The notes beneath the pieces were generated by a model, which ran no database searches, was not told the origin of the DNA, and worked only from the letters and a program-made list of their open reading frames with translations. Below, piece by piece: positions 1,524 through 43,013 of a DNA stretch of 64,000 nt. How positions within the stretch are numbered: the stretch's first letter is position 1; every line of letters begins with the position of its first letter. Source of the DNA: Escherichia phage Ecwhy_1. The stretch is from the sequence record MH791411.1, one strand, 5' to 3'. Position numbers and translations under genes: made by a program.

Positions 1524-4500
1524 ATGAATGAACGAATTATATGGAGTCCAAAAATGACTAATAATTTTAAGTTTCAACCTACACAGATGGCTGAAGCAGT
1601 ACAGAAGAAGCTTTTCATAAAAAGATTGCCTGAGTGGATGCAAGGCTTAGAAGATATTCAGAAAGTCAGTGATGATGTTATCCAACAATGGTTTAATCCG
1701 GCTGAAAACGAATTAGTTGACGGCTACATTGGTGACATGGGTTCTCCGGCAGCAGCAGGGAACATCTTCTTACACGAGTCAACAGTCGCACGTCAACTAT
1801 ATCAGTTGTCCACTGCGTATGTCTCAAGAAATGATGACTCCAGCATTCGTTCAATTCAATTTTATGATGATCTAGTTGGCTATATGAATCATTACGGTGC
1901 ACTAACCGAAAATGAAAGCCGTTTGTTTAATGGTAAGTTCTATTCATGGACCCCACCAATTAACCCAAATAAAATGAACAACTACAGTTCATACCTATGG
2001 GATTCCAAGAATAGCTATAATATCACAACTCCAGATTATATTGTAATGGAACGTGGTGCAGAAAATGGTAACACTTGGTCACTACAAAACTTCTGGTACA
2101 CATTAGGTGAAACTTTAGAAGATGGTACTATCCTAACTGAAGAACTAATGCAAGATTCCCGTTTTGTTCGTGCTCGTGCACCAATTATCGAATACAATAA
2201 AAATATCGAACTAATGAACTACGGTACTAAATTCCGTGGGACAGTTGATTTGTTCTCTGATATTATTAAACCTGAAGATATCGTACAAAAAGATATTAAC
2301 AGCGGTATACGTATTGATGGTATTATTCCACAAGATGGTATGCGTATTCTTTTCACCAGTATTGGTAACAATGGTGAAAACAACCGAATTTATAAAGTAT
2401 ATGTTAAACGTATGCAAGATGGAACACGTGTGTATGGTCTAGCATTAGATCCAGACGAAGAATCTGAAAGCCGTCCGAGTGGTGAACCACAAGATGGTGA
2501 CGTAGTTCTTATTATCAAAGGTAATGAATTTGGTAACAGTTCCATGTATTGGGACGGTTCTCATTGGATTCAAGCACAGTCTAAAACTTCTGTGAACGTA
2601 TTTCCACAATTCCAATTGTATGACCGTAATGGTGTTAAACTAAACAACACTACTACCTATCCATCAAGTACTTTTACTGGTTCTTCACTATTTGGTTTTA
2701 AAATTAACTATAATTATGCAACTGATAGCGTTTATGGTTATAATATTGAACTAGGTGATTACAATTATTACACATATGAGAATTTCCTACAATCAACTCG
2801 TTATACTTACGAGCATTTGGGTGTGGAAGTTGAAATTGATGGACTATATTACTATAACGTAATTGGTGAAGGTAATACAATGAACCTAGAAACTGATTGG
2901 GTTCGTAGTACTGAATACTCCAAACAATATGTTAAACAAACTCCACAGGTTGAACGTACAGTAATGTTCCGCGTGTTCAGTACTGTTTATGACATGGAAA
3001 GTTTCAAAGACCCAGTTGAAGGAATGTATGCTTATGTAATTGAAGTTGACAGAACTTATCAATATTACAAAGCAGAACGTGAAACATATCTTGATTGGCA
3101 TGTTATCGTTGGTGATGGGGTACAAAGCGTTAAGTACAATCATACATTTGAATTGGCACAAAAAGTACTAGATAATTCTGATGATATTATCGAACTAGTT
3201 GTTGATGGTGTGGAAATAAAAGAATACACCAAAACTGTAGTTAATAATCAAGTACAAAGTATTACAATTGATAGCTCTGTTGATTTGGATGAAGATTCTG
3301 TTGTACAAATCAGAACTTATAGTAGCACTATCACTCCTAATAAAGAGTTGGGTGCATATGAAGTTCCAATTAACCTACAAAATAACCCATATAATTCAAA
3401 CATTGAATACATCAACCAAGGTGATTACACCCTGCACTTCCAAGATATTATTCAAAAGAATATTACATCTGGTTCTGCTGATGACTTTAACAATTACGAA
3501 GAACGTTTGGCTGCTGGTTTGGTTAATAATGGTGTAGGCACTAAAATTATTCAAAACGAAGCGTCCATGTTACCACTAATGGCACATACCGCTAATGAAG
3601 ATATTGATTTGTTTGAATCAATCATGTTTATGCAAGCAGAATACTTCCGCTTCATTAACAAGTTCAACACTCAAATGCTTCGTTTGTATGAAGAAGACCC
3701 AAGTGCTTTTCTTGGTAATAGTGCATCAAACATCGTAGATGCGATTCTAACAGCTATTAATATGGGACGTGATAGTACATTCCCATTCTACTATGACAAC
3801 GTTGCAAGCACTGCTGGGTTTATTCGTGCATTTGTCCCACCAACTCCACAGTTCTTGGGTATTTTGCAAGCTTATACACCACAAAAAGCAACATTCTTAA
3901 CTGCTGGTAGTAAATCTAGCTGTTATAATATCAGTCATACTGGTATTATTTCAAAAGCATACCGTGTTATCAATGGTGTTGATAAAATGGATGACGTAGT
4001 TTTTGAATTGGAAAATCGTATCTTTAATAGTATTGATCTTACTTTCAAGGATATTGATTATAAACCAGTACTAAACAGTGAAGACCTATTCCCAACTCCA
4101 TATTTCACTGGTACTGATTATAGTGCAGAAGAAAAGAAAACTCTATTACTACGTGGTTACATTAACTTCACAGCAACCAATGGCATTAGTAACAGTACTC
4201 ATGATTATGATGCAAATAACTGGAGAACTTGGAACTATACTGGTAGTTATTATGTTGTTGATGGTCAACGTACTGAAATTCCTGCTCGTGGTTCATGGCG
4301 TGCAATCTATACTGACCAATATGGCACATATCGTCCAGCAACCCATCCGTGGGAAATGATGGGCTTCTCTCAACGTCCTACTTGGTGGAACCAAGAATAC
4401 GAACCAACCGCAGTTCAAGTTGGTGAACGTGAGGGTGATGTTGTTTATGTGTATGAAGCACTAGTAATGAATGAAAATGGTGATTTGGTCCCAAGTGGAT

Positions 4501-7500
4501 TGTGGGATATTGATGGTACTATCGGTGATAGCAGTACTGGTACTATTTTGTCAGGTGAACGCCGTGGTCAATATGACAAATACAAGCGTTTCGGTGTACA
4601 GCCATTTAAAATCACTAAGACTGGCGAGAAAACCAGTACTGGTATTGATATTTGTGAAGTTGAGTATATTGCACCTGAAGTTTTAGGTCTTGTTAGTGGT
4701 AATTTAGATCATCGTGCAGAACCGTGGTCTTATGGTGACATGGGTGACATGGAATTCACTTACATGAACACTGCGATGTTTGCTTATGACCAAATGCTTC
4801 TTCTATACAAAGCAAAACCAGCACAGTTTGCAAACTATTACTGGGATACCCGTAATGATAACCTTAAACCAGTTTATACTGATGGTTCACAGTTCCTTTA
4901 TGGTGAAACTCGTAAGCGTCTAAACTTTGACAGTACTACATTAGTACATGGTGAGAAAAACACCCGTACTATCGGTTATCAAATGTTTGTTAGTGACTAT
5001 TTGATGTATCAGAATAAGAACATTACCACCAAATACGGTGACGTTGTTCGTTCTTCTTATGTCAATGTCGCTCACAAAATTGGTGGCTTTACTAAAGCAG
5101 ACCAATTGACATTCACTGCTAAATCTTTCGGTTTGATTTCACAAGAAAACCAAACTATCGGTCTAGTTCGTTCCAATAACATTCGCGATGAGCAAATGAG
5201 TGCAGTAAAAATTACTTGGAATGGTAGTGCATATCAAATTGATGGTTATGATTTAGTTGGTGCTAAATTTAAATATAAAATTCCAGTTAAAAATGGAAGA
5301 AAAGTAACTCTTAAATTGGAAGACAGAACTGTTGTTCATTACAATGAATGGAAATCTGAAGGTACATTAGAATATGGTAAAATATTCAATACATACCAAG
5401 AAGTTTATACTTTCATTTGTGGATATGGTGAATATCTAAAAGAACATGGCTGGATTTTTGAAGATGTAAATGATAGTGGTACTCAACAAGACTGGACAAC
5501 TATTGCTAAAGACTTTGTTATTTGGAGTCAGAATAATTTAAGTACTGGTGAGTTCATCTCCTGCACTCCAAGTGCAGCTAATGCTAAATTTGGTGCGGAT
5601 TTTGGTTCAGTTCAATCTGTTACACAGAATAGTGGTGGTGTTTGGTCACTACTCGATGATGAAAACCAAGGTATCCGTCAATATGAAATCGAAACTTCGC
5701 GTATCGGTAACGTATTCACAGTGAGAACTACATCTGAATCACAAAAACGTATGGCGTTGATTCGTTTGAGCCTAAGTTCATATGAACACGCAGTTGTTTT
5801 TGATGATAAAACTATCTTTGGTGATTACATTTACCAACCAACTTATGGTGCTATTCAAGAATTGATTAAAATGTATGGTTACATTACTGGGTCATGGACT
5901 GGTCGCCTACAAGCACCTGGTTTCATTATCCTAGAAGCAGGAACTTTACCATCATTTGAAAAATTAGTAACTGATTTTGAATTATATTATAATAGTGAAA
6001 CTCCTGTGAGTGATGTTCAGCTTCAAGAGTTATCAAATCACTTGATTGGCTATCAAACTCGTGATTATCTACAACGTATGATTAGTAGTGATGTTAGTCG
6101 TGTTGATTTCTATAAAGGATTCATTCATGACAAAGGTACTAACCAAGTAATGGAAAAAGTACTACGCGTTTCTAAATCTTACGACACTGATGAATATAAA
6201 GCACTTCAGGAATGGGCATTTAAGATTGGTACTTATGGTAATATCAATGGTAAGAAAAATCTACAATTTAAACTAATCAATGACCAATTTAAACAACAAC
6301 CACAGATGGTTTCGTTTGATGTTAATGCTACATCAAATGGTACTGGTAATGGTATTGTTTATTACGGTGAACAAGGGGTTGACTCACGCTGGATTACTCG
6401 TCCAAATGGTAAGTTTTCATTCCCAATGCGTAGTGGAAGAAGTGAGAATATCCAACTTCCAGACATTGGTCCTGTAACACTAGATGAAATTTCATACGTT
6501 ACTAAAGATTTCAGTACTGCATATAATGATCGTATCAATTATATGAATAACAGTGGTGAAATCCCAGATTCTGTATGGATGTTTAAAGATGGTAATGATT
6601 TGTGGAATATTTTCGAACTAGTAGACACTGAAGTTGAGATGCTCTCTATCGTTCCAATTGAAAATACCGATGTATATGCAGAACAATTCTGTAAAGTAAC
6701 TCTAAGTGATGATATCCCACTAAATGATGGTGATTATTATTACTTTGTTGATGAAACTAACTTTATGCCAGATACATTGACTATAGAAAGTCAATATTAT
6801 ACTGCGGGTAATGACCCTAGAGTTATGGTAGTTCCGTTTGACACTTCAATCACTATTGACTTCACTGATCCTGATACTCGCCCACGCTTGTATCGTTATG
6901 TTTCACGATTCAGTACTGAAGAGATGCGTCAGGAATACATTGACAGAAAATATAGTTTTAAAGCTCCACAAAGTACTTTGTTTGACCGCCCAACCACATA
7001 TGATGAGCGTACTAACATTACTGCGTTGTACCTAAACGTGTTTGACCCAATCAACGGTGTTATTCCTGGTGCAGCGATGCAGAACGTTACCTACACATCT
7101 CCAGTTGACCCAGCACAATACAACAGCAATGGTGAATTGATTCAAGCATGGGGTGCTGATAAAGTTGGTCAGGTTTGGTGGAACACCAGCACTGCTTTCT
7201 ACTTAGATTACACTCGTGCAATCTATGATGCTGATGGTAATGTGGATGTTGATGCAACAAATGAATATAAACGTTATAACTGGGGCAGATTGCTACCGCA
7301 CAGTACTGTTGATGTTCTTGAATGGGTATGTTCACCAGTTGAACCATATAACTGGGACAAATACTGCAAAGACGTTGCTAACAAAAATAAAAACAACACT
7401 ATGTACCTACCAAGCGGAACCGCATTGGAAGATAATTATAGTACGTTCTTAGAATATGATAGCACAACTGATACTTATGTTACAAAATACTATTTCTGGG

Positions 7501-10500
7501 TTCGTGATACAATCTATGTACCACCATTGCATTCCAGAACTAAATCTTGTACTGATATTGCTCGTATTATTAAAGAACCAGCACAGCTTAACATTCCTTG
7601 GTTTGCACCAATCAATGAAAGCTCGTTCATTCTAAGTAATATGCAATTTGAAGTCAACGATGACACAAGTATTTTAACTGTTTCTTATTACATGGATAAT
7701 ACTGAAGTTATTAAACATGACCAGTATCAATTATGTAAAGAAGGTGATAGCTATAACTTCAATCCATCAATCTGGACTTCTATGTGGAATTCTATGATTG
7801 GTCAAGAAACTACTGAATCAGGAACTGTTATTGATTTACTATATCCTTTAGTACCAAACGGTTTAGGTTCTAATAAGACTTGGTTCCAAGATGTAATTGA
7901 AGCTCGTAGAAACTTTGTAGAAAGTGCAAATAACTATTATCGCTCACAGAATATAACAACTAACACTGTTCTAATGGACGAAGTGTTTAATGTTAAAACT
8001 ACTGAAGTTAACCCGAATGAAGTATCATATCGTGTACTAACTTACAATAGTGAATTAGTCATTGCACCTGAAAGTGACAAGTTCAAAGAAAACGACGCAG
8101 TACTAGTAAGTACTAGTGGTGTATTACCTAACCCACTATCAACTAGCTCTGTATATTTTGTGCATATTGATGCTAATGGTTATATTCATCTAATGAATAG
8201 TCCATCAAGTGCTGGTAGTGTGGTTACCATTACATTGGAAAACCGTGGTGAAGGTCAACAGAAAATGATTAAACAATCAGACTATGTTGAAGCACTAGGA
8301 ACTTCATTGGACATGACCCAGTACTGGTCACTAGCAGATTGGTATGATATTGGCTACGATAAAAATACTGCATATACACAAGAATCCAGCCTAGAAGATG
8401 CAAACACTAAGAACTATCAAGTTGGTGACATTATCAGAATTACAGATGTTGATGGCATCTGGACATTGTACATTAAAGCACAATCACGTGATTCAGTTTA
8501 CTGGAAAGCAATTGGTCGTGAAAATAGTACAGTTGAATTGAATGATATGTTATACGCTGACTATACAGTTCGTGATGCTAATGGTTCGTTGAGTAATCGT
8601 GAGATTAACGTTCGTAAAGCACTAGCTTTATTGAAGAACTCATTCGACTTACATCAGAGTGAAATTGTGTTTGATATGGTTAAGTATGTTCACGTAGAAC
8701 AAAGCGTTGTTGATTGGGTATTCAAAACATCTTACATTTATATTGTAGGTTTAGAACAATCATTAGTACAGAACTATTCCAACGACAACTTGATTAATCA
8801 AATCGTTGAGTACTTTGAAGAAGTTAAACCATATAGAACTAAGATTCGTTCCCAGATTGAACAGAAAACTTCAGATGATGATTTAATTAAAGGTTTGTGT
8901 AATGATTTAGATCCTAATGGCTATATATTTGCAGATGGGACTTGGGTTAAAACGGAAAAAGACATTTGGGATTATGAATATGCTCAATTCAATGAGGTAA
9001 CTCAACGTTGGGAGCAAGTTGGTGAATTGCCAAGTGATTTCGTAACACCTAATCGCCGTTTCCAAGAAATTGATGTTATCATGCACTACGACAACACTCA
9101 ATGTAAACCAAATGATAATTTGGCAAGTGTTGATGTATTGGAAGAAGTGAATAAGAAATATCAATCTAATGCACAAGATGTTGTTAGTAATTTTGAATTA
9201 CAACGTTACAAATATACATTCCCAGAATACAGTGATGAAGATTTCGACCTATTGGTTGCTTATCAGATGCAATTGTATTACCCAGAATTGAACGTAACTC
9301 TAGGGATTGCTTACGGTGTTAACCAATGGTATGCAGACCATGCAGATGATTTGGTAGCAACCGCAGAATTCACAGAAACGTTGAATCGTGTATATAAAGA
9401 ATCAACACAAAATGAAATGTTTAATGACGTAAATCATTATGTTCAGTATAACACACTCTCTAACCGTTTGAAATTGTACACAGGTGCAGATGATGAAGTA
9501 ATTCATGATGAGGTTGGATGTGGATTTAGTGGGTTAACCTATGATGATAATCCAAGCACCAGACTACCGTTTGGTTATGCATCCAGTACTGATTATAACT
9601 TTGGTTACTTTGAAGTTAGTAGTGAGTTGTATAAAAAGTATGTTTCTTTAATTAAAGAAAACAATACTACTGCAACTGATGATGAAGTTAGAATTATACT
9701 TGAAGTTGAATATGGTGTTTATTCATATCGCCATGTAGATGAAGATGGAAATCAACGATTCTACAATGACGCAATTCATGTATTGTCTGGTATGCGTGGT
9801 TTGTATGACAAAGATGCTACCGACCATTATGAAAAGGCTGAAGAAATACTAAGTAGAATGCCTATTGATATTCATGCATTTACTATGATGCCACGAAAAT
9901 ATGTTTATGTTAATGTTAATGGTGTATACGAGAGTATCCCAGATGACCAAAGCATTGATGATTTCATGGAAGACAAATTCATAACTGACGGTCAACTAGT
10001 TCAATTGGCAGAAATAAATCTTGATGACTTACCTCTTGATAGAAATAACCCAATGTACAGTGATTATCAGCACATCCTAGATAGCATCACCGATGCTAAG
10101 TACTACGATGATATGAATGCATTTGATAACCTAGCACTTGAATCACAAACTTCCGAGTTAAAATGGGAAGTTGAAGGTGACGAAGTAGATCCGTACATAA
10201 TCGACATTTCTGATATTAACCCATCAGGAAGAAAGATTGGTCAGATTCGCTTCACAGTTGATGGTTATGGATTCAATAGTGTTTCACTAGTTCAATTGAG
10301 AGACAATAGTAGATATAAAACTGAAGGTATGGTTATCATCAACCCTTATAAAACAACAGAAGCAATTGTTAGTATTCCTTCTTACGCTAAGATTGAAAAT
10401 GATATTAGTAAATCATACAGTAAGTATGATGAAAAATACTTCTATAAAATTAAATCAATTGTTAGTGATACAGAAGCTGAAGTAATTGACAATACCCTAT

Positions 10501-11525
10501 CTGATGGTGATAAGGTTATGATATTCACAACTGATGGTGAAGATTATGTGAGATACCAAAACAATGCATGGGAAACCATCTTGAGTGTATCAAAAATCAA
10601 AACTGACACCACACCAACCTTGTACACAGTAAGAAACACTGCGAACGGAACTGTAGAACTACTAGATAGTACTGGAGTTGTACTTCGTTATGATAACATC
10701 ACTAAACAACAACAGAATGAACCAGCAATACCTCTAGCATTGAACATCGTTCGTATTAGAACCTTTGCTGATCCAGAATTCTTGGTTGATGGTGTTAAGT
10801 TGTATGAAACAAATAGAAACTATGCTATCGACGCAATGAACTATGAAGTATTCTACGACACAACACTATACGGTGGTTCTTATAATGATGGAATTACACC
10901 AGATGACGTTGATGTTTGGGTAGTGTCTAACGAGATATTTGAAGTTGATGGTGTTACCATTGATAACGGATATAACTTACCAATTACTGGTGCAGGTGTT
11001 CTTAGTGAGTTAGTGAGAACCAAAATGACTGATAGTGTGGAAATTAACGTGTTCGAGTATGATGTTGGTATTATTCAACCAGTACTGAATACTGAAGGGG
11101 TATGGGAATATGCATATCCACTAGTTAGTGATACATATATTGGTGTAGTTGGTGGAACCGTAACTAACATTACTGCTATCAGTGAAGAAAATACTACTTA
11201 TGTTTCACAACCAGATTCAGTTAGTCCATATAGTGTTACTAATAATGTTCTATCTGGTGCTGGTGCAAGTATGAATGATATTATTTCTCTTGGTTTTGAA
11301 AAAGTTGAAGTACGTTTTGCAAATAACTTACTCCGTGGGGTAATGTATAGTGCAGAACACGACTTTAAAGAGAATGTGACATATTCATTTAATGGCTTGA
11401 ACTTAGGTAAAGTTAATTTACTAAAACGTTATAGTGTTAACAGTTATCCAATCGAACTATCTGTTTACTCCGATAGTTTGCAAATAAGTGGTACTGACAT
11501 TAAAAATCTATTAGAAGTTAAATAA
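1524..11525 (+). CDS. Giant virion protein (3,333 aa; 3,323 aa if started at ATG 1554), putative expanded baseplate/fibre-network protein in the T4 gp7 position
   Basis: Single uninterrupted 10-kb ORF. ATG 1554 has GGAG 7 nt upstream (tatatGGAGtccaaaaATG); ATG 1524 has no SD. Ends at a bidirectional terminator. No catalytic motif recognised by eye. Confidence 0.85.
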   Translation: MNERIIWSPKMTNNFKFQPTQMAEAVQKKLFIKRLPEWMQGLEDIQKVSDDVIQQWFNPAENELVDGYIGDMGSPAAAGNIFLHESTVARQLYQLSTAYVSRNDDSSIRSIQFYDDLVGYMNHYGALTENESRLFNGKFYSWTPPINPNKMNNYSSYLWDSKNSYNITTPDYIVMERGAENGNTWSLQNFWYTLGETLEDGTILTEELMQDSRFVRARAPIIEYNKNIELMNYGTKFRGTVDLFSDIIKPEDIVQKDINSGIRIDGIIPQDGMRILFTSIGNNGENNRIYKVYVKRMQDGTRVYGLALDPDEESESRPSGEPQDGDVVLIIKGNEFGNSSMYWDGSHWIQAQSKTSVNVFPQFQLYDRNGVKLNNTTTYPSSTFTGSSLFGFKINYNYATDSVYGYNIELGDYNYYTYENFLQSTRYTYEHLGVEVEIDGLYYYNVIGEGNTMNLETDWVRSTEYSKQYVKQTPQVERTVMFRVFSTVYDMESFKDPVEGMYAYVIEVDRTYQYYKAERETYLDWHVIVGDGVQSVKYNHTFELAQKVLDNSDDIIELVVDGVEIKEYTKTVVNNQVQSITIDSSVDLDEDSVVQIRTYSSTITPNKELGAYEVPINLQNNPYNSNIEYINQGDYTLHFQDIIQKNITSGSADDFNNYEERLAAGLVNNGVGTKIIQNEASMLPLMAHTANEDIDLFESIMFMQAEYFRFINKFNTQMLRLYEEDPSAFLGNSASNIVDAILTAINMGRDSTFPFYYDNVASTAGFIRAFVPPTPQFLGILQAYTPQKATFLTAGSKSSCYNISHTGIISKAYRVINGVDKMDDVVFELENRIFNSIDLTFKDIDYKPVLNSEDLFPTPYFTGTDYSAEEKKTLLLRGYINFTATNGISNSTHDYDANNWRTWNYTGSYYVVDGQRTEIPARGSWRAIYTDQYGTYRPATHPWEMMGFSQRPTWWNQEYEPTAVQVGEREGDVVYVYEALVMNENGDLVPSGLWDIDGTIGDSSTGTILSGERRGQYDKYKRFGVQPFKITKTGEKTSTGIDICEVEYIAPEVLGLVSGNLDHRAEPWSYGDMGDMEFTYMNTAMFAYDQMLLLYKAKPAQFANYYWDTRNDNLKPVYTDGSQFLYGETRKRLNFDSTTLVHGEKNTRTIGYQMFVSDYLMYQNKNITTKYGDVVRSSYVNVAHKIGGFTKADQLTFTAKSFGLISQENQTIGLVRSNNIRDEQMSAVKITWNGSAYQIDGYDLVGAKFKYKIPVKNGRKVTLKLEDRTVVHYNEWKSEGTLEYGKIFNTYQEVYTFICGYGEYLKEHGWIFEDVNDSGTQQDWTTIAKDFVIWSQNNLSTGEFISCTPSAANAKFGADFGSVQSVTQNSGGVWSLLDDENQGIRQYEIETSRIGNVFTVRTTSESQKRMALIRLSLSSYEHAVVFDDKTIFGDYIYQPTYGAIQELIKMYGYITGSWTGRLQAPGFIILEAGTLPSFEKLVTDFELYYNSETPVSDVQLQELSNHLIGYQTRDYLQRMISSDVSRVDFYKGFIHDKGTNQVMEKVLRVSKSYDTDEYKALQEWAFKIGTYGNINGKKNLQFKLINDQFKQQPQMVSFDVNATSNGTGNGIVYYGEQGVDSRWITRPNGKFSFPMRSGRSENIQLPDIGPVTLDEISYVTKDFSTAYNDRINYMNNSGEIPDSVWMFKDGNDLWNIFELVDTEVEMLSIVPIENTDVYAEQFCKVTLSDDIPLNDGDYYYFVDETNFMPDTLTIESQYYTAGNDPRVMVVPFDTSITIDFTDPDTRPRLYRYVSRFSTEEMRQEYIDRKYSFKAPQSTLFDRPTTYDERTNITALYLNVFDPINGVIPGAAMQNVTYTSPVDPAQYNSNGELIQAWGADKVGQVWWNTSTAFYLDYTRAIYDADGNVDVDATNEYKRYNWGRLLPHSTVDVLEWVCSPVEPYNWDKYCKDVANKNKNNTMYLPSGTALEDNYSTFLEYDSTTDTYVTKYYFWVRDTIYVPPLHSRTKSCTDIARIIKEPAQLNIPWFAPINESSFILSNMQFEVNDDTSILTVSYYMDNTEVIKHDQYQLCKEGDSYNFNPSIWTSMWNSMIGQETTESGTVIDLLYPLVPNGLGSNKTWFQDVIEARRNFVESANNYYRSQNITTNTVLMDEVFNVKTTEVNPNEVSYRVLTYNSELVIAPESDKFKENDAVLVSTSGVLPNPLSTSSVYFVHIDANGYIHLMNSPSSAGSVVTITLENRGEGQQKMIKQSDYVEALGTSLDMTQYWSLADWYDIGYDKNTAYTQESSLEDANTKNYQVGDIIRITDVDGIWTLYIKAQSRDSVYWKAIGRENSTVELNDMLYADYTVRDANGSLSNREINVRKALALLKNSFDLHQSEIVFDMVKYVHVEQSVVDWVFKTSYIYIVGLEQSLVQNYSNDNLINQIVEYFEEVKPYRTKIRSQIEQKTSDDDLIKGLCNDLDPNGYIFADGTWVKTEKDIWDYEYAQFNEVTQRWEQVGELPSDFVTPNRRFQEIDVIMHYDNTQCKPNDNLASVDVLEEVNKKYQSNAQDVVSNFELQRYKYTFPEYSDEDFDLLVAYQMQLYYPELNVTLGIAYGVNQWYADHADDLVATAEFTETLNRVYKESTQNEMFNDVNHYVQYNTLSNRLKLYTGADDEVIHDEVGCGFSGLTYDDNPSTRLPFGYASSTDYNFGYFEVSSELYKKYVSLIKENNTTATDDEVRIILEVEYGVYSYRHVDEDGNQRFYNDAIHVLSGMRGLYDKDATDHYEKAEEILSRMPIDIHAFTMMPRKYVYVNVNGVYESIPDDQSIDDFMEDKFITDGQLVQLAEINLDDLPLDRNNPMYSDYQHILDSITDAKYYDDMNAFDNLALESQTSELKWEVEGDEVDPYIIDISDINPSGRKIGQIRFTVDGYGFNSVSLVQLRDNSRYKTEGMVIINPYKTTEAIVSIPSYAKIENDISKSYSKYDEKYFYKIKSIVSDTEAEVIDNTLSDGDKVMIFTTDGEDYVRYQNNAWETILSVSKIKTDTTPTLYTVRNTANGTVELLDSTGVVLRYDNITKQQQNEPAIPLALNIVRIRTFADPEFLVDGVKLYETNRNYAIDAMNYEVFYDTTLYGGSYNDGITPDDVDVWVVSNEIFEVDGVTIDNGYNLPITGAGVLSELVRTKMTDSVEINVFEYDVGIIQPVLNTEGVWEYAYPLVSDTYIGVVGGTVTNITAISEENTTYVSQPDSVSPYSVTNNVLSGAGASMNDIISLGFEKVEVRFANNLLRGVMYSAEHDFKENVTYSFNGLNLGKVNLLKRYSVNSYPIELSVYSDSLQISGTDIKNLLEVK

Positions 11526-11526
11526 C

Positions 11527-11560
11527 AAAAAGGAGAGCAAATGCTCTCCTTTTCTTTTTT
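11527..11560. terminator. Bidirectional terminator between convergent giant ORF and clpA-like gene
   Basis: aaaa-aggagagc-aaat-gctctcct-tttctttttt: perfect 8-bp GC-rich stem flanked by an A-run and a T-run. Confidence 0.8.
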
Positions 11561-13847
11561 ACGCAATAACTTTTTCTACTGCTTTAGTGCGTTTAGGTTT
11601 GATAGCCAATTTACCATCAATCACATCAAACGTCACGTTACCACCATTAACTAGAGAACCACACAACATCTCTTTAGCTAGTGGAACACGGATGTTTTGC
11701 TCAATAGTGCGTTTCATTGGACGTGCACCCATCCCAACTTTAACACCATTTGTTGCCAACCACTCACGTGCCGCTTTAGTCAGGGAAACTTTAACTTTGC
11801 GGTCTTTGATTTGTTCATTCAGACTACCCATGAACTTATCAATGATGCTGTCAATCGCTTCGCTGCTTAGGTCTTTGAATGTCACAATACTATCGATACG
11901 GTTGATGAATTCAGGTGGCAAGAATGCTTTAATAGCTTTATCTTGTGCTGTATCACTACCGCTCATCCCAATACTACGCTTGGTTGAATCTGCTGCACCA
12001 AGGTTAGTCGTCATAATAACAGTTACGTTATTGAAGTAAACAGTTTTACCTTGTGAACCAGTCAAACGTCCTTCGTCCAGAACCTGTAGGAAGGTTAGTA
12101 GTACTTTACGATCAGCTTTTTCGATTTCATCAAGCAACAGTACTGCATTCGGGAACTGCTCAATCTTGTCGAGTAGCAGACCGTTACCAGAATCGTGACC
12201 AACATAGCCTGGAGGTGAACCAATCAGTTTAGCAACAGTATGTTCCTGTGAAAACTCGGACATATCGAAACGAATCAGTTCGGAACCAGTTGCATCAGCC
12301 AGTGCTTTGGTAATTTCAGTTTTACCAGTACCAGATGGACCAACAAACATGAATGCACCTTGAACACTTGATTTATCACGCAGACCAGCACGAGCTACCA
12401 TCACGTTATCAACCAGTTTCTGTACTGCTTCTTCTTGACCGTATACACGAGAACGGAGTGCATCTGGTAGATTACGCATACGTTCACTTTCAGTGCAAGC
12501 AACCACGTTAATATCTAGGTTTGCGATACCTGCAACAACTTCTTGAATCAGTGCAACAGTGATGATGTTATCATCAGTTTCACGAGAACGTACTTTCGCT
12601 GCTGCCGCATCCATTAGGTCGATTGCTTTGTCAGGGAAGTGTTTGTTCTTCAGGAACTTATCACTTAGTGTAATAACTGCATCCATTGCTTCAGTACTGA
12701 ACTCTACGTTATGGAAAGTTTCATAAGTAGATTTCAAACCATTCACAATCGCACGGGTTTCATCAATTGTTGGCTCAACTACATCAATTTTCATGAAACG
12801 GCGAGTTAGTGCACTATCTTTTTCGATGTTTTTACGATATTCATCGTAAGTTGTTGCACCGATTACACGAATCTCACCACGAGATAGTGCAGGTTTGAGC
12901 ATGTTGCTCATATCCATAGAACCGTTGCTTGCTGACCCAGCACCAACCATAATATGGATTTCATCGATGAACACAATAGTGTTTTCACGTTTCTTCAGTT
13001 CTTTTAGTAGGTTATCGATACGTTCTTCGAACTCACCACGGTACTTAGTACCAGCAGTCAGTGCACCTACGTTCAGAGACAGAATTTCAACATCTTTAAG
13101 ATGCTCTGGTACTTCACCATCAGCGATTGCCTGTGCTAGACCATCAATGATTTGAGTTTTACCAACACCAGCTTCACCAGTCAGGATGGCATTCTTCTTA
13201 GTCTTACGGGCCAGAGTTTCAATCAGTGCAGAAAGCTCTTTCTGGCGACCAATCATTGGGTCAAGTTTACCTTCTTTTGCAAGTGCGGTTAGGTTAGTGG
13301 TGTAATCTTCTAAACCTTTTTGTTTGGACGATGGTTGCTGTTGTGCCACTTTTTTCTCCCCAGTTGGCTCATCACTAATGCTTTGAAGGTTGATTCCGTT
13401 GTCGATTGCTTCTACGTGCTTCTGTAGAGTTCGTGCTGCTTCAGTACAAGTGATACCCTCTTCACGCAATGCTGCTTCTAGTGCAGTATTTGGGAAGGAC
13501 AAACACTCAAACAGTACAAAATAAGCATCAATTGAGAAATCATCACGTTTAAGTTGCTCAATTACTGATTTCTTAGAAAGTTCCTGAACTACACGGTTCA
13601 CGAGAAGTGATGTGCGGTTCGCTTCATCACCATCAGCACTTTTAGGTGCATGTGGGAATGTTGTATTCTTCAGATATGCAATCAAACGACCGTGTAGGTT
13701 GTCTGCATCGATGTTCATATCTTCAAATACTGCTTTGATGCTATCGATTGTCAGTACTGTAGCACTTAGATGGTCAATAGTCAAGAATGTATGACCCAGA
13801 GAAGTTGCCAGTTCGTCGCTTTTTTTGAATAATTGGGTAAGATTCAT
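11559..13847 (-). CDS. clpA: ClpA-type double-ring AAA+ unfoldase (Clp_N + D1 + D2)
   Basis: Clp_N-like N-terminus (LTIDHLSATVL). D1 has Walker A GEAGVGKT and Walker B IVFIDEIH; D2 has GPSGTGKT and LLLDEIEKA. The C-terminal third parallels recalled E. coli ClpA (TTNLGA..KRSIGM..PEFINRIDSIV, GARPMKRTIE). About 760 aa with no long M-domain, so ClpA-like rather than ClpB-like. Track start 13871 is GTG; ATG 13847 has ttaGGAGaatacATG. Confidence 0.9.
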   Translation of the reverse strand: MNLTQLFKKSDELATSLGHTFLTIDHLSATVLTIDSIKAVFEDMNIDADNLHGRLIAYLKNTTFPHAPKSADGDEANRTSLLVNRVVQELSKKSVIEQLKRDDFSIDAYFVLFECLSFPNTALEAALREEGITCTEAARTLQKHVEAIDNGINLQSISDEPTGEKKVAQQQPSSKQKGLEDYTTNLTALAKEGKLDPMIGRQKELSALIETLARKTKKNAILTGEAGVGKTQIIDGLAQAIADGEVPEHLKDVEILSLNVGALTAGTKYRGEFEERIDNLLKELKKRENTIVFIDEIHIMVGAGSASNGSMDMSNMLKPALSRGEIRVIGATTYDEYRKNIEKDSALTRRFMKIDVVEPTIDETRAIVNGLKSTYETFHNVEFSTEAMDAVITLSDKFLKNKHFPDKAIDLMDAAAAKVRSRETDDNIITVALIQEVVAGIANLDINVVACTESERMRNLPDALRSRVYGQEEAVQKLVDNVMVARAGLRDKSSVQGAFMFVGPSGTGKTEITKALADATGSELIRFDMSEFSQEHTVAKLIGSPPGYVGHDSGNGLLLDKIEQFPNAVLLLDEIEKADRKVLLTFLQVLDEGRLTGSQGKTVYFNNVTVIMTTNLGAADSTKRSIGMSGSDTAQDKAIKAFLPPEFINRIDSIVTFKDLSSEAIDSIIDKFMGSLNEQIKDRKVKVSLTKAAREWLATNGVKVGMGARPMKRTIEQNIRVPLAKEMLCGSLVNGGNVTFDVIDGKLAIKPKRTKAVEKVIA

Positions 13848-13885
13848 GTATTCTCCTAAATGAGTAGTCACTCTAATTAATAAAC

Positions 13886-13913
13886 ATTATATCACATTCT
13901 TTGCGTTTGTCAA
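13886..13913 (-). promoter_or_regulatory. Consensus sigma70-type (early) promoter of the clpA-like gene
   Basis: Minus strand reads TTGACA-aacgcaaagaatgtga-TATAAT (16-nt spacer, TGa extended -10), about 40 nt upstream of ATG 13847. Confidence 0.75.
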
Positions 13914-13955: not shown

Positions 13956-15452
13956 ATGGCATATAGAATGTGGAAAAAAGGTAGAACCAATGATTACAAG
14001 TTCATTGACTCTGCCATAGCAGAACAATACAACATCGGTGGTGTTGACATGTGGCTTTATGCCTATGTCGGACCAAAACAAGTCGCTGATAACACTGATT
14101 TATCATACGGCGGTGATTATTATGGATCAGATAGTACCGTTGTGTCAAGCATTGGTGATTTAATTTTTGGTGACACTCCAAGTCGTAACTATAATCTCGA
14201 AGCTATCACCTTAAGTTGCGTCTACCAAGTCCAAGAAGCAACTCCTGACTTGAAAATCCCAGGATTGTTCTTCAACTTTAACACTATGGACATCACAATT
14301 CATTATAACACAATGATTCAGCGTTTGGGAAGAAAAATTATGCCAGGTGACGTAATCGAACTTCCTAACTTACGTGATTTTGATGTACTTGGTAAAGATT
14401 CTGGTTTAAACCGCTTCTATGTAGTACAAGATGGGTTTAGAACGTCAGAAGGTTACTCAGTTACATGGCAACATCACATTTACAAACTCCGTGTTAAACC
14501 TCTTACTGATTCACCAGAGTACTCTGACCTTCTAGGTAACAATAACTACCCTGATGACCCAGATGATCCAAACAACGGCAATGGTAATACTGATGATGGC
14601 TCTTCAGAGAACAGCAGCTATGGTAATGAAATGGATATTATGAACCGTATCATTATGCAAGCTGATGATGAAGTACCATACATTCATTTTACTAACGAAC
14701 ACTTGTTCGATGACAGACCAGATACTGTTGATTTGTCTAAGTATATGCTAAATGGATACGAATTACCAGAGGAACCAGCAAATAAAATGTATTTCCTCAA
14801 GAAAACTTACCCAGTACTGAAAGAACTATCTAATGATACATGGATTTCTGTAGAAGTCAAGCGTGGAACAATCTTTCCTCGCAAACCGATGGATGGTGAC
14901 TTCTTCTTTAAAGAAAACGAGGCTGATGTCACTGGCTTCTCATTGTATCAATACGATAAATCTGCCAAAAAGTGGCTAAATTGTGATGTTGAGTATACTA
15001 CAGAAAGCACACCACCACAAGGGGTTGATGATTTTTATATTGAATACAAAGAACCACACATTTATCAGTACTTAAATGGTAAATGGGGAGAACCAGAAGT
15101 AACTTACGTTAATGACCCATTCACTTCTAATAGTGTTTATGGAAATATCGATTCACAACAAGATTATCGTCCTAAGATTCCTCCAGCACGAGGTACAGTT
15201 CCTGAAGGTAATATGTTCCCAAGTGATGCAGTTGATGGTGATTACTACTATCGTACCGATTATACACCAGTAACCCTATGGGAATACAGTGCGTCCAAGA
15301 ATTCTTGGGTGATTTTCGATTACGGTGGTAGAAAACCGTGGGAAGGTGCAGATCTTGCTCTAACAGAATTTGTTAATAGCCCGAACCGTGTACCATTACA
15401 TGATGCAGTTAAACCTAATACAGCGTATCGTATACATAAGGATTCAGAATGA
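13956..15452 (+). CDS. Virion protein, putative neck protein (T4 gp14 position)
   Basis: Track start 13944 is TTG; ATG 13956 follows tttGGAGacaaac. Its stop overlaps the start of the gp15-like gene (ATGA at 15449-15452). Contains an Asp/Asn/Gly linker (PDDPDDPNNGNGNTDDGSSENSS). Function is inferred from position only. Confidence 0.55.
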   Translation: MAYRMWKKGRTNDYKFIDSAIAEQYNIGGVDMWLYAYVGPKQVADNTDLSYGGDYYGSDSTVVSSIGDLIFGDTPSRNYNLEAITLSCVYQVQEATPDLKIPGLFFNFNTMDITIHYNTMIQRLGRKIMPGDVIELPNLRDFDVLGKDSGLNRFYVVQDGFRTSEGYSVTWQHHIYKLRVKPLTDSPEYSDLLGNNNYPDDPDDPNNGNGNTDDGSSENSSYGNEMDIMNRIIMQADDEVPYIHFTNEHLFDDRPDTVDLSKYMLNGYELPEEPANKMYFLKKTYPVLKELSNDTWISVEVKRGTIFPRKPMDGDFFFKENEADVTGFSLYQYDKSAKKWLNCDVEYTTESTPPQGVDDFYIEYKEPHIYQYLNGKWGEPEVTYVNDPFTSNSVYGNIDSQQDYRPKIPPARGTVPEGNMFPSDAVDGDYYYRTDYTPVTLWEYSASKNSWVIFDYGGRKPWEGADLALTEFVNSPNRVPLHDAVKPNTAYRIHKDSE

Positions 15453-16804: not shown

Positions 16805-17269
16805 ATGAATGAAGCAGTAGGTGCTATATTTTTATCTAAAAGTACTGGACACATGATGTTAAACTTGAGATCAGAAAGAAGTACGTATTCTAACAACTGG
16901 GCATTTGTTGGTGGGAAGCTTGAGTATAATGAAACTCCGTTACAGGGTCTTATGCGTGAGATTAAAGAAGAGCTAGGTGATTCTATTCCAACGATAATAG
17001 ATATTATACCATTTGATGTATTTTGTACGAAGAATGGTAAATTTAAATATTATTCATTTGTCATTGTAGTTGAAAATGAATTCGTACCTACTTTAAATCA
17101 TGAGAGTTCTGGTTATGCATGGGTTAAGATTGGCTCATGGCCCAAACCATTACATCCTGGTGCAAAAAACACATTACTCAACACAAATTTAATGAAGGAT
17201 TTCTATTCATTGTGGGAAAGTATACGACAAGGTACACAGTTTGTCAACAGCTTACCATATCGATATTAA
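16805..17269 (+). CDS. Nudix hydrolase
   Basis: Nudix box GGKLEYNETPLQGLMREIKEELG (GX5EX7REUXEEXGU). Strong RBS aaGGAGGtgttgttATG. Confidence 0.85.
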   Translation: MNEAVGAIFLSKSTGHMMLNLRSERSTYSNNWAFVGGKLEYNETPLQGLMREIKEELGDSIPTIIDIIPFDVFCTKNGKFKYYSFVIVVENEFVPTLNHESSGYAWVKIGSWPKPLHPGAKNTLLNTNLMKDFYSLWESIRQGTQFVNSLPYRY

Positions 17270-23957: not shown

Positions 23958-26900
23958 ATGTACTCGATTAAAACAGATCTCGATATAACTGGTGGTGCAA
24001 CGGTTGCTAAAGATCTTCTTGTGAAAGGCGATGCAGTATTCAATAAAAATCTAACAGTTAATGGAACTGTAACTTTTGCTGACGCTGTATTCACTGCAAT
24101 TGAAGCAGAAACTGTAGACATTTCATCTACACTAGATGTTGCTGGTAAAGCATCATTGAATGGTGGAATTGAAGTTCATGGTAATTCCGTAATTGGTAAT
24201 TTGCCTGTTGGTTCTGATACTGCAACGATTAATTCTAATGCACAATTCCAAAGCCCAGTATCAATGGCAGGTAATCTAACACAAACCGCTGGCACTGCTG
24301 TACTAAAAGATACCCAAGTGGCATCAATGGATGTTCTTGGGACTTCTTCATTTAAAGGTAATATTACTGCTGAAACTGGCACTACCGCAGCATTTGACAA
24401 AATAACTGCAACTGATGCAACATTCACAAACACTGCAACTACTGATATCACATCAACTGGAACTGCAAACTTTAAAGATGTGAATATTTCCGGTACACTA
24501 GGTGGAACATTTAGTCTATCTGATGTTAATGCAACAACTCTAACTGTTTCTGGTTTAACCAGTCTACAAGGTGGTGTTACATTAGGTTCCAACATTACTG
24601 GTGTGAATAGTAGTGCAAACTTCCGTGATATTAAAATTGGTTCCAATGCTGCAAACACTAACTACCGTTTGAGCTTTAACTATTCTGCTCCAAGTCTTCG
24701 TCCAACTGTAATTCTACAGAACGAAATCCAATCAGAATTGATGTCTCCAGCTACCCTAAGTGTATTGAAAACTGCATCTTTTGGTGATTCGTCACTATCC
24801 ACTTTTGGTATTACTGGTAATGGTCTAAACAAACTAGATTACCTAACAGTATCTGGTAACTCTGTTCAAGATCCAACAACTCCACTATTACAAGTAACTT
24901 CAGGTAAAACTAAAGTTCATGATTTCGAAGTAACAGGAACTGCAACTATTCCTAACATTGAAAGTACTGGTACTGCTAATTTTAATAACATCAACGTATC
25001 TGGTACACTCGGTGGTACTTTCAGTCTTGATGATATTGAAGCAAACACACTAACTGTATCCGGTTTAACTAGCCTTGTTGGTGGTGTAACTTTAGGTGCT
25101 GATATTTCCGGTGCTAATAGTACTGCTAATTTTAAAGCAGTAAGTTTAGGACAAAACGCCGCCGATGCTAACGTTAAGTATGGTTTTGCTTATTCTGCCC
25201 CTGGTGCTCGCCCAACTGTAATTCTACAAAATGAAATTCAGTCTGAGCTAGTATCTCCAGCAGTACTTAATGTACAAAAAACTGCAACCTTTGGTGATGC
25301 ATCTCTTGCAACCTATGGTATCACAGGTAACGGTCTAAACAAACTAGATTATCTATCTATTACTGGTAATGGTACACAAAGTCCAGCTACCCCACAACTA
25401 CAAGTTGCTGGTAAATCAGTACTAAATGATGTTGAATTCACTGGTACTGTAACTGGTCTAACTGTTGATGTGAGTGGACAAGATCTAACTCCTAAATCAG
25501 TAGATGCTGCTGAAGCAATCAAAGGTCAAACCCTTGAATCAGTTGGTCAAACCACAGTAGGAACTAACCTACAAGTTGGTGGAACTGCTAATGTTGTTGG
25601 TGCACTAACTGGTACTGCTGCTACCTTCACTGGTGATGTAAGTGCTGCTAAAGGTACTTTCAGTGGTGATGTTAGCGTTACTGGTCAAACTGTAACTGTA
25701 CGTGATTTAGTAGTAACTGGTACAACTACTGGTGTAACTGCCCAAGCTGATGTTGATGGTCTTGATATCGCCCCAAATAAAGTTGATGTTACAACAACAC
25801 TATCTGTTGCTGGGGACACTACTTTAGCTGGCCTAACTGCTAGTTCAGTAACCAGTACTGGTGATGTTACTGGTGCGTCTGTATCTGGTAATACAGTAAC
25901 TGCGGCTGGGGCACTATCTGGTGGTTCTCTTGCAGTAACTGGTGCTGGTTCTATGGCTTCACTAACTGTTCCAAGTATTACTGGTGACACTACTTTTGCT
26001 AATAACGTAACTATTACTGGAACACTAACTCCGAGTAGTATAGATTTAAGCACTACTGATGTAAGTGCTGCTTCTTTAACAACTACTGGTAACGTAACTG
26101 TTGGTGGTTCTCTTGCAGTAACTGGTGCTATTGATTTGTCTGCTGCTGATGTAGTAACAAAATCAGTTAGTGCAACTAACCCAAGTACATTTGGTGTAAT
26201 TAATGCATCTTCTGTTGCCGCAACTGGTGACGTTTCAGGTGGCACACTAACTACTACTGGTGCAGCGAAAGTAGGAACACTAACTAGTACTGGTGTAGTA
26301 TCTGGTTCGCGTTTGTCTTCTGGTACTGCAACAATCACAACTTCTGTAACAGTTCCAACTTTACAAGCTGAAGCTGCTGGTGCTGGTACACTAAATCTAG
26401 CAAGTAATGTTGTCGCGGCAAAAGATCTAACTGTCACTGGTGTATTCAAACCTGAAGGTGGTCTTGATCTAACAACTGTTGATATTACTGCAAACTCACT
26501 AACTACTACTGCTGATGTTAATGTTGGTGGAAACTTAGTAGTTGATGGTACTTTTGACCTAAGTGCTGCTGATGTGTCTGTGAAATCTCTTGCAAGTGCA
26601 GAGACAATTACAAGTGCTGGTGTTATTACCGTTACCGATTCAACCAATACTAGTTCGTTACCTAAAATTACTTCAACTGATGCAACACTCTTTACAGTAA
26701 ATGCAGGTACTATTAATGCAACTGGTAACAGTGTACTACAAAGTGTATCAGCTACTCAAGTAACTGCTAATAGTGCTGAATTTTCTGGTGGTGGCCTTGG
26801 TCTTCAAGTTGATAATGATGCAAACGTTGGTGGTGCATTATCTGTTGGTGGCATTGCAACTGTTGGTTCTTTAACAACAACTGCTGCTTCTCTTAATATT

Positions 26901-28892: not shown

Positions 28893-28910
28893 CATTTTAA
28901 ATTAATAATT

Positions 28911-28943
28911 AAAGCCAACTTTTTTAGTTGGCTTTTTCTTTTG
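28911..28943 (+). terminator. Rho-independent terminator
   Basis: aaagccaac-ttttttta-gttggcttt followed by ttcttttg. Confidence 0.7.
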
Positions 28944-28971
28944 TATTAGATAATAGTGTTTTTGTGAATTA

Positions 28972-28995
28972 AACTAAATATAAGTATATTAACAA
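28972..28995 (+). promoter_or_regulatory. Conserved promoter/leader box of giant fibre gene 2 (contains TAAATA)
   Basis: aacTAAATAtaagtatattaacaa is a duplicate of the box at 23890-23913. Confidence 0.55.
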
Positions 28996-29041
28996 AAGAT
29001 GGGTTATGAATATATAGTTCATCGTTATAGGAGGGGACTCT

Positions 29042-41684: not shown

Positions 41685-43013
41685 TTAACCAAGAGAGCGT
41701 GCTTTACGTACTAGGTCAGAGTACTTCATAACGAAGTCTTTAAACGCTGGTACATCTTTAATCGTAATCGCTACTTTATGAAGCGTGATGGTACGAATCG
41801 CCAGTACTGCCAGTTCTGCTTGAGTTGCAGAGAAGTTATGGTCTAGGAAGGTGATGAAGTTGTTGCACAGCTTACCCCAATCTTCCACTGGTAGACGTTG
41901 TTCTTGCTTCTCATTGTAGAGGTCGATAATTTTGTAAACCAGATTCAGAGTGATGAAGTAGTTCGCGGAAATATCAAGCGAAGCATCAATCTCTTTAATC
42001 TCACCCTGTAGGATGGACATGGTATCTGGTAGTTTAGCTACGTTATCAACATACTCGATGTATTCAGTTGCTACGCCTTCACCAACACGACCTGCAATCA
42101 TCGCACGGAACACTTCTTTATCAATGTTCTTAACTTTCTTCAGATCTTCGTAGCGTGCTACTGCTTCCCATGAACGTGGAGAAGTACCACCACAGTGAGA
42201 AGGATCTTGTGGGCTAAGGGTGTTGAAGTGTTTAGCACCAGTGTTGTTGATGAACGCTACAGTTGCTGGGTTCAAACGCTTACCAATCGCATAATCGTTA
42301 ATCCAATCTTGATGATAAGGAATCATTTCGATGTGGGTCATACGGTCACGCAGTGGTGTAGCTAGAGAGAACGTTACACCGCCATCAGTTTCACGGTTAC
42401 CTGCTGCGAGAATCAGTGCAGTCTTAGGTAGCTTCATCTCACCAACACAACGGTCGAGGATTAGCTGATAAGACGCTGCCTGTACAATCGGCATTGCAGA
42501 GTTGATTTCGTCAAACAGAATAACACCTTTCCAATCTGGAGACAGTTTCAGTACTTTAGGTGCTGCCCACACAACTGCTGTTTCAGCGATGTAATCTTGT
42601 GCACTAGCCAGTTCAGATTCAATCAGTTGCTTACCATCCATATCAAGGAACACTTTCTCTGGAACTGGGATACCGCGAAGGTCACTTGGTTCAATCTGAG
42701 ACAAACGGAAATCGATAAAGTTAGTGTCTTGGTCGATTAGTTTGGCTTCAAACGCTGCCAGTTCACGGCGAAGTTGATCAGCATTTTCAGTATCAGCTTC
42801 GATTTGTTGTTTCATGAACTCAATTTTTGCCACGTTATCTTTACGCAGTGGGTAGTTCTCATCAGCGTATTGACGTGCGATAGCAGATTTACCGATACCA
42901 GGGCTACCCCAAATCATCAGGCTATCTTGAATCATGTCAGCCAGTGCCATTGCTTCTTTAGCTTTCTTAGGAGTCAGTTTTACGTTCAGGATATCGTTGT
43001 TTTGAGTAGACAT
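41685..43013 (-). CDS. MoxR/CobS-like AAA+ ATPase (AAA_5 type)
   Basis: Walker A GSPGIGKS, Walker B VILFDEIN, sensor region ILAAGNRETDGG..PLRDRM. RBS caAAAGGAaaatatacATG. Confidence 0.85.
   Translation of the reverse strand: MSTQNNDILNVKLTPKKAKEAMALADMIQDSLMIWGSPGIGKSAIARQYADENYPLRKDNVAKIEFMKQQIEADTENADQLRRELAAFEAKLIDQDTNFIDFRLSQIEPSDLRGIPVPEKVFLDMDGKQLIESELASAQDYIAETAVVWAAPKVLKLSPDWKGVILFDEINSAMPIVQAASYQLILDRCVGEMKLPKTALILAAGNRETDGGVTFSLATPLRDRMTHIEMIPYHQDWINDYAIGKRLNPATVAFINNTGAKHFNTLSPQDPSHCGGTSPRSWEAVARYEDLKKVKNIDKEVFRAMIAGRVGEGVATEYIEYVDNVAKLPDTMSILQGEIKEIDASLDISANYFITLNLVYKIIDLYNEKQEQRLPVEDWGKLCNNFITFLDHNFSATQAELAVLAIRTITLHKVAITIKDVPAFKDFVMKYSDLVRKARSLG

Follow-up and report, generated by a model that had tools for sequence, protein, structure and literature searches.

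This report concerns an open reading frame (ORF) of Escherichia phage Ecwhy_1 (sequence record MH791411.1), of which one stretch of 64,000 nucleotides was analyzed (hereafter, the window). The ORF runs antisense within a block of virion genes and encodes a protein of 762 amino acids that resembles the bacterial unfoldase ClpA. We consider it probable that this protein acts as the unfoldase in a ClpAP(S) protease of the phage's own, which is served by host-type promoters and is a core feature of the RaK2-like jumbo phages. In such a system, the host sigma70 RNA polymerase would transcribe the clpA-like gene from its own extended −10 promoter, independently of the virion genes and presumably on a different schedule. 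The ClpA-like protein, given its intact motifs and its fold, would form a double-ring hexamer, which would dock through a loop carrying the tripeptide IGM onto a ClpP encoded by the phage itself (EcMJ_201), and a diverged ClpS-like protein (EcMJ_400) may modulate the choice of substrate. The complex would then unfold and degrade selected host proteins, phage proteins, or both. The designations of the two partners are those of Escherichia phage vB_Ec-M-J (378.6 kb, Asteriusvirus), to which the window region is 99.8% identical and of which we read directly the first 150 kb and the region from about 249 to 257 kb.

By its motifs and predicted fold, the ORF encodes a real and intact protein-unfolding motor of the ClpA type. 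The coding sequence occupies positions 11559–13847 of the minus strand, stop codon included, and begins with an ATG that has the ribosome-binding site AGGAG 5 nucleotides upstream (13853–13857, minus strand, read off the sequence). An alternative GTG start at 13871, which would add eight residues and give a protein of 770, has no ribosome-binding site, and the annotated relatives use the ATG. Pfam places AAA at residues 221–341, AAA_lid_9 at 361–429, AAA_2 at 497–654, and ClpB_D2-small at 660–739. Together with the alignment to Escherichia coli ClpA, these matches delimit a D1 AAA+ module with its lid (about residues 196–440; 12528–13262, minus strand) and a D2 AAA+ module with its small domain (about residues 455–745; 11613–12485, minus strand). 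Ahead of them lie a diverged Clp_N-type N-domain (about residues 1–150; 13398–13847, minus strand) and a disordered linker (about residues 156–176), as drawn from Pfam and an AlphaFold2 model. A preliminary description of this DNA had claimed a 762-residue protein with a Clp_N-like N-domain and two complete AAA+ modules; the length and both modules stand, but the N-terminal 178 residues, scanned alone, match only the first Clp_N repeat (residues 11–59) and do so marginally, at 21.3 bits against a cutoff of 20.7. In the AlphaFold2 model, which was built on a 33-sequence alignment and has a mean predicted local distance difference test score (pLDDT) of 79.5, the N-domain comprises eight helices within residues 3–148, with pLDDT values of about 50–65 over residues 61–110, and the linker falls below 50. 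Of the folded parts of the protein, the N-domain also varies most across the phage clade (mean column entropy 1.65).

Among protein families, ClpA is the best match. The top NCBIfam model, TIGR02639 (ClpA), covers residues 3–741 in a single stretch at 751.6 bits, whereas ClpB (TIGR03346), ClpC, ClpV, ClpK, and ClpG each match in two separate pieces, the ClpB model without its middle region; the two-stretch ClpB and ClpC matches imply that the phage protein has no M-domain. When all sequences of the PDB were searched with phmmer, E. coli ClpA (1ksf) came first (E = 5.6e-178), with residues 17–741 of the phage protein aligned to 20–734. The aligned D1 motifs are GEAGVGKT (Walker A), FIDEIH (Walker B), the KYRG pore loop, and the RRF arginine fingers, and those of D2 are GPSGTGKT (Walker A), LLLDEIEKA (Walker B), the GYVG pore loop, NRID, and GARPM; the arginine fingers and sensor-2 align with E. 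coli ClpA in the phmmer alignment as well. Foldseek retrieves ClpC and ClpA chains taken from ClpP complexes, with 46–48% identity and a template-modeling score of about 0.8 to ClpA D1–D2, and by this fold search ClpA is not separable from ClpC or ClpB on structure alone.

The likeness to E. coli ClpA (1ksf, 6w1z, and 7uiv) thus extends from end to end. The two proteins have nearly the same length (758 versus 762 residues) and the same order of parts (N-domain, D1, and D2, with no M-domain), are 46–48% identical over D1–D2, and share the Walker, pore-loop, arginine-finger, and sensor motifs as well as the place of the docking loop. The phage protein differs in a strongly diverged N-domain, a longer linker, and a docking tripeptide that reads IGM instead of IGL, with changes at the contacting neighbors (I620S, H621G, and Q622S); its gene, moreover, is carried by a virus and has a phage early-type promoter. 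The ClpB/Hsp104 disaggregases also possess two AAA+ rings, a Clp_N domain, and similar D1 and D2 folds. The preliminary description had held that closest kinship to these disaggregases would undo its reading; the single full-length alignment and the absence of an M-domain place the protein with ClpA. A ClpB/Hsp104 identity is rejected, because the ClpB match is broken in two and without an M-domain and because a ClpP-type loop is present, which ClpB lacks. We therefore describe the protein as a diverged member of the ClpA family, the assignment being to the best-matching family with a score below the equivalog cutoff.

Neither clpP nor clpS lies in the window, as had been stated beforehand; local tblastn gave no match there better than E = 0.26. 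The preliminary description had proposed a scan of the rest of the genome for clpP, clpS, or adaptor genes, and a clpP and a clpS-like gene are present outside the window. EcMJ_201, labeled “head maturation protease” by PHROG-style annotation in its record, is a full-length ClpP of 231 amino acids (vB_Ec-M-J, 81671–82366). It matches Pfam CLP_protease at 1.3e-41 and TIGR00493 at 153 bits, and the true ClpP models lie far above the ClpP-related head-maturation model. The triad S97, H122, and D171 is intact in seven lineages. This ClpP is 66–100% identical across the same RaK2-like records that carry the ClpA-like protein, its homologue is annotated as a Clp proteolytic subunit in RaK2, GAP32, PBECO4, and phAPEC6, and it ends in a C-terminal extension, about 20 residues long, that is likewise conserved; the protein is kept in all RaK2-like phages. 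For ClpS, the E. coli protein gives weak tblastn matches in GAP32 and its relatives. GAP32_314 matches Pfam ClpS at 9.4e-11 and, used as a query, retrieves a full-length ClpS-like homologue in 71 of 71 RaK2-like records. Such homologues are 121Q gene 48, annotated “protease adapter protein ClpS,” and EcMJ_400, a two-domain ClpS-like protein of 181 amino acids (vB_Ec-M-J, 252760–253305) encoded directly downstream of an IF3-like gene. A three-sequence profile of the phage family matches E. coli ClpS at 4.4e-11, and because this profile and GAP32_314 both link the family to ClpS, the homology can be regarded as established and a ClpS-fold core as supported. Since the phage carries its own ClpP and ClpS-like adaptor, it can probably do without the protease of its host, and the earlier suggestion that the unfoldase hijacks host ClpP is no longer the economical one.

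A second, weakly ClpP-like ORF was seen in the same genome. EcMJ_208 (202 amino acids; vB_Ec-M-J, 85301–85909) matches Pfam CLP_protease at 20.6 bits, has a hydrophobic N-terminal segment, and follows a promoter of the form TAGACA-N16-TGATATAAT; it could be a serine peptidase that is secreted or associated with a membrane.

On present sequence comparisons, the clpA-like gene is a long-known core gene of the RaK2-like giant phages. The window region is 84% identical to 121Q, PBECO4, phAPEC6, and G17. The protein is 100% identical in vB_Ec-M-J, fEgEco12, WPEC3/5, and EC.P1, 92.8% identical to its counterparts in 121Q (gene 581, “ClpA-like protein”), PBECO4, and phAPEC6, and 75% identical to RaK2 ORF069. 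A near-full-length ClpA match occurs in 96 of 50,697 records, with one tblastn place per record, and by that measure the genome has no second Clp/Hsp100 ATPase. Full-length ClpA homologs had been called unusual in phages, which is true of phages overall but not of the RaK2-like clade, where the gene is universal and already published. It is annotated as ClpA-like in dozens of records, and its conservation among RaK2-like phages is in print (PMC6102473, PMC7824862). The functions that Iyer et al. (2021) list for jumbo phages include ClpA, ClpX, ClpS, and ClpP (PMC7824862). Clp is not a topic of the genome papers on fEgEco12 and Sharanji. In a search of 5.8 billion proteins, the homologues form an unbroken jumbo-phage series from 100% down to 54% identity, followed by a drop to 45% and then to about 40% for gammaproteobacterial ClpA. 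The jumbo-phage members come from contigs of 345–378 kb, including those of RaK2, 7t3/SE_PL, GAP32, XbC2, and pEa_SNUABM_19.

The identical protein also appears in NCBI as “AAA family ATPase [Escherichia coli]” (protein cluster P0001), from which it follows that genome assemblies of bacteria contain contigs of this lytic jumbo phage. This agrees with recent reports of lytic phage genomes in such assemblies.

The docking loop itself is in the expected place. The preliminary description had aligned the stretch KRSIGMSGSD with the IGL loop by which ClpA docks onto ClpP, and this alignment proved sound. KRSIGMSGS is encoded at 11955–11981, and the IGM tripeptide (residues 626–628; 11964–11972, minus strand; located with HMMER and confirmed by translation) aligns without gaps to I617-G618-L619 of E. 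coli ClpA (1ksf and 6w1z); the alignment runs unbroken from the MTTN strand to the PEFxNR helix, which puts I626-G627-M628 exactly on the IGL residues. Its structural placement, which the same description had left to modeling, is likewise supported, at low confidence: in the AlphaFold2 model residues 624–630 form a surface loop with pLDDT below 50 between a strand (608–614) and a helix (634–642), as would be expected of a flexible IGL loop. The loop position is thus homologous, but the third residue, methionine, falls outside the F/L of the [LIV]-G-[FL] docking pattern. Across 111 clusters of phage homologues, the tripeptides include MGM, IGM, IGV, LGM, IGA, LGL, MSM, IGG, MNM, and others; 74 clusters have a hydrophobic-Gly-hydrophobic tripeptide, 17 have no glycine, and in 16 the third residue is small or otherwise not hydrophobic (A, G, or H). 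Position 628 ranks 23rd in entropy among the 305 D2 positions of the phage clade. The docking helix-loop-helix retains its full length, and conservation of G627 reaches at least 90% in a diverse set.

Both sides of the presumed interface have diverged from the bacterial pair. In E. coli, the ClpA residues at the interface are I617, G618, L619, and I620, together with R614, H621, and Q622, and they contact L23, L48, F49, A52, Y60, Y62, F82, I90, M92, F112, L114, and L189 of ClpP and, in addition, E26 and R192 (Lopez et al., bioRxiv 10.1101/820209). In the phage ClpA-like protein, five of the seven contacts are altered (L619M, I620S, H621G, Q622S, and R614K), and only the isoleucine and the glycine are unchanged. 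The phage ClpP differs from E. coli ClpP at 10 of the 14 pocket positions, including Y60T, F82S, F112L, and L114G, and retains Y62, M92, and R192. Across genera, the tripeptide and the pocket appear to change together: RaK2 combines IGV with the bulkier Y82, F112, and V60, and Asteriusvirus combines IGM with S82, L112, and T60. Drawn from few lineages, this covariation is suggestive. The divergence on both sides of the interface is, as far as sequence comparison goes, a small new observation.

A more specific proposal can be built on these differences, and we put it forward tentatively, as something less likely than the general reading on which it depends. In the RaK2-like phages, the Clp protease may be orthogonal to that of the host, with a re-specified ClpA loop, a ClpP with a remodeled pocket and a C-terminal extension, and a two-domain ClpS-like protein with a non-canonical N-degron pocket. 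Made early through the host RNA polymerase, it would run parallel to and insulated from host ClpAP and ClpXP, degrading phage-chosen host proteins (possibly those of defense) or early phage proteins.

The clpA-like gene has regulatory signals of its own, much as had been described beforehand. Its promoter is an extended −10, sigma70-type element, TTGACA-N16(..TGa)-TATAAT (13886–13913, minus strand), which matches the consensus at 12 of 12 positions and carries the TG in addition; it sits 38 nucleotides upstream of the ATG, and the TGa is contained in the 16-nucleotide spacer. Perfect TTGACA-N15–18-TATAAT sites number three in the 64 kb, against 0.19 expected. At the other end of the gene, an intrinsic terminator at 11527–11554 is called on both strands, is therefore bidirectional as claimed, and is shared with the convergent gene for a 3,333-residue virion protein. 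Both signals are kept in relatives. The promoter reads TAGACA-N16-TGATATAAT in G17 and phAPEC6 and TTGACA-N18-TGATATAAT in RaK2, and a metagenomic relative whose ClpA is 54% identical has the extended −10 element only. G17, RaK2, and this same relative all retain the terminator hairpin, with compensatory changes in the stem, and the G17 record annotates the equivalent hairpin as a terminator. The proposed partners are similarly served: in vB_Ec-M-J, clpP has the promoter TAGACA-N16-TGATATAAT and the IF3-clpS pair has a 12/12 consensus promoter, so that consensus or near-consensus sigma70 promoters are common to all three.

The wider genome provides a setting for promoters of this kind. Positions 1–21525 of vB_Ec-M-J are a 21.5-kb direct terminal repeat, dense with small genes of about 50–130 amino acids. 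It holds 12 of the 16 perfect sigma70 sites of the first 150 kb, and many of its small genes stand behind TTGACA-N16-TGTATAAT; the layout looks like that expected of immediate-early genes. The T4-type late-promoter motif TATAAATA occurs on neither strand of the 64-kb window, so the late promoters of the phage presumably have a different consensus. According to the Sharanji paper, the phage has a gene for an RpoD-like sigma factor of its own. Our literature search found no transcriptome of a RaK2-like coliphage.

The other two perfect sites in the window lie in tandem on the minus strand (43185–43212 and 43277–43304) and are of the TGTGaTATAAT class that also includes the clpA promoter. Downstream of them, also on the minus strand, are genes for a 442-residue AAA ATPase (41685–43013) and a 469-residue DUF2201 metallopeptidase/VWA protein (40200–41609), which resemble a MoxR/VWA pair and have the highest third-position guanine-plus-cytosine (GC) content (GC3) of the window. 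The phAPEC6 homologue from this locus, gp265c (“ATPase”), was found in virions.

Several observations weigh against the view that the ClpA-like protein works as part of a phage ClpAP(S) protease. First, the pairing of the phage ClpA with the phage ClpP is one that we infer from their co-occurrence and from the divergence of the interface. Second, the covariation seen across genera does not extend to differences inside the genus: in phage A4, LGL occurs with the same 14 pocket residues as in the IGM phages. Third, about one-third of the clade members have no canonical hydrophobic-Gly-hydrophobic tripeptide (IGG, IGA, MNM, and MSM), and docking could for that reason be dispensable. Fourth, the clpA, clpP, and clpS-like genes lie 80–90 kb apart and form no operon. 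Fifth, the family scores fall below the curated cutoffs, with 751.6 bits against an equivalog cutoff of 993.15 for TIGR02639 and 648.7 against 1350 for NF008263. Finally, the Asteriusvirus ClpS-like protein, searched alone, has no match in Pfam. Its binding pocket is kept in part. We take the ClpS N-degron pocket to consist of N34, D35/D36, T38, M40, and H66; in the Asteriusvirus protein D35 and T38 are kept, and the other positions read N34D, D36P, M40A, and H66N.

A different role could be read from the surroundings of the gene. Its neighbors, at 1524–11525 and 13956–15452, are both on the plus strand, and the ORF coordinates bear out the opposite orientation claimed for it. The gene at 1524–11525 encodes the 3,333-residue virion protein, which is convergent with clpA and has the terminator in common with it; its phAPEC6 counterpart, gp245, is known from mass spectrometry. 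The local order is baseplate wedge, virion protein of about 3,330 residues, antisense clpA, virion protein of about 490 residues, gp15-like tail-sheath stabilizer, and NUDIX. This order is the same in G17, phAPEC6, and RaK2, and from the giant protein to NUDIX it is kept in the metagenomic relative with 54% ClpA identity. It might be supposed, then, that the fixed position in the baseplate/tail module is functional and that the protein serves virion assembly as an unfoldase or chaperone independent of ClpP, acting for instance on the adjacent 3,333-residue protein or on giant tail proteins. The preliminary description had itself offered a chaperone role for giant repeat proteins, an idea for which the evidence weighs neither way. 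Iyer et al. proposed a role in assembly or translocation (PMC7824862), the adjacency to the giant gene and the common terminator persist down to 54% ClpA identity, and one-third of the clade members have degenerate docking tripeptides. We nevertheless regard this explanation as rather unlikely. The docking helix-loop-helix remains full length with its glycine at least 90% conserved, ClpP and ClpS-like partners co-occur with the protein throughout the clade, and transcription from a sigma70-type promoter, rather than together with late genes, points to a timing unlike that of the virion genes. The adjacency, moreover, may be mere conserved gene order, because the NUDIX gene is similarly enclosed in the module. 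This NUDIX/MutT hydrolase gene (16805–17269, plus strand) directly follows the gene for the gp15-like tail-sheath stabilizer, is kept in RaK2 and in the metagenomic relative, and is a second non-structural gene fixed within the virion module.

The ClpA-like protein is itself non-structural and not a component of the virion, because phAPEC6 gp246c (ClpA) is absent from the virion mass-spectrometry table in which the flanking gp245 (382 kDa) and gp248 are present; gp353c (ClpP) is absent from the table too (PMC7247149). Elsewhere in the window, at 23958–34741 on the plus strand, two giant ORFs of 1,644 and 1,899 amino acids are unusual in codon-position composition, with second-position GC contents (GC2) of about 0.54–0.55 and GC3 values of about 0.16; they are probably the repeat-rich fiber proteins mentioned in the preliminary description.

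Alternatively, the phage ClpA could dock on the ClpP of its E. coli host, alone or besides the phage ClpP, and redirect it to host or defense proteins. By the time an early gene is expressed, the host already has abundant ClpP; the IGM tripeptide occupies the homologous position and keeps the I and G of ClpA's IGL; and the phage ClpP retains Y62, M92, and R192, so that the two pockets are not wholly different. This seems to us unlikely. The phage has an intact ClpP of its own, conserved along with ClpA across the clade, and of the seven residues by which the ClpA loop touches E. coli ClpP, five are altered (10.1101/820209). In ClpX, the conservative changes I268L or F270L in the IGF loop, each alone, severely weaken ClpP binding (PMC7112951). 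A loop constrained by a conserved host ClpP would not be expected to drift as this one has among phages of enterobacteria, through IGM, LGL, IGV, IGA, IGG, and MNM. The enterobacterial hosts of these phages generally have near-identical ClpP proteins. Because of that near-identity, and because changes in the ClpX tripeptide are damaging, the drift is more easily explained by a co-evolving ClpP of the phage's own.

Lastly, the gene had been described as horizontally acquired and visibly richer in GC than its neighbors. The GC content is indeed raised, at 41.9% against 35.7% and 38.6% for the two neighbors, but the excess is modest: it amounts to +1.6 standard deviations from the window-gene mean (36.9 ± 3.1%), several window genes equal or exceed it, and other regions reach 40–45%. 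Most of it resides in the first codon position (GC1 0.565), with GC3 at 0.321, near the level of the phage itself, against 0.256 ± 0.048 for window genes (z = +1.35), and it therefore reflects amino acid composition. A recent horizontal transfer or insertion is rejected on this GC3 value, on the single, phage-only clade, and on the conserved position, synteny, promoter, and terminator. It is accordingly very improbable that the gene is a “moron,” a clpA recently taken from the host or another bacterium, lacking any integrated phage role and with its GC content as a foreign trace; its ultimate origin is clearly a bacterial ClpA and its GC content is above the window mean, but the nearest bacterial ClpA is only about 40% identical, the phage-only series is unbroken from 100% to 54%, synteny and regulatory signals are conserved, the GC excess lies mainly in first codon positions, and the catalytic motifs are all intact.

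Besides E. coli ClpA, the closest comparisons are with other giant phages. The RaK2-like ClpA genes (121Q 581, PBECO4, phAPEC6 gp246c, RaK2 ORF069, and those of GAP32, 7t3, and XbC2) are the same gene in the same position and orientation, with the same promoter and terminator, and vary in the docking tripeptide alone (IGM here, LGL in A4, IGV in RaK2, and MNM in 7t3). Agrobacterium phage Atu_ph07 and Pseudomonas phage PA5oct also have ClpP and ClpS, and Atu_ph07 has ClpA/ClpX/ClpB as well (PMC6102473, PMC7824862). The ClpP of Atu_ph07, however, shares about 64% identity with E. coli ClpP and looks recently bacterial, whereas the RaK2-like ClpP, ClpA, and ClpS-like proteins are far more diverged and specific to their clade. 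Our literature search found no biochemically characterized phage-encoded ClpA/ClpP/ClpS set and no relevant experimental work on phage ClpP or ClpA.

As such, the finding of a clpA-like gene adds little, since its annotation and comparative conservation were already known. What may matter more is that both sides of the unfoldase-peptidase interface are unlike those of the host pair. That divergence makes an orthogonality experiment worthwhile, and the possibility that giant phages possess a private degradation machine, orthogonal to that of their host, thereby becomes directly testable.

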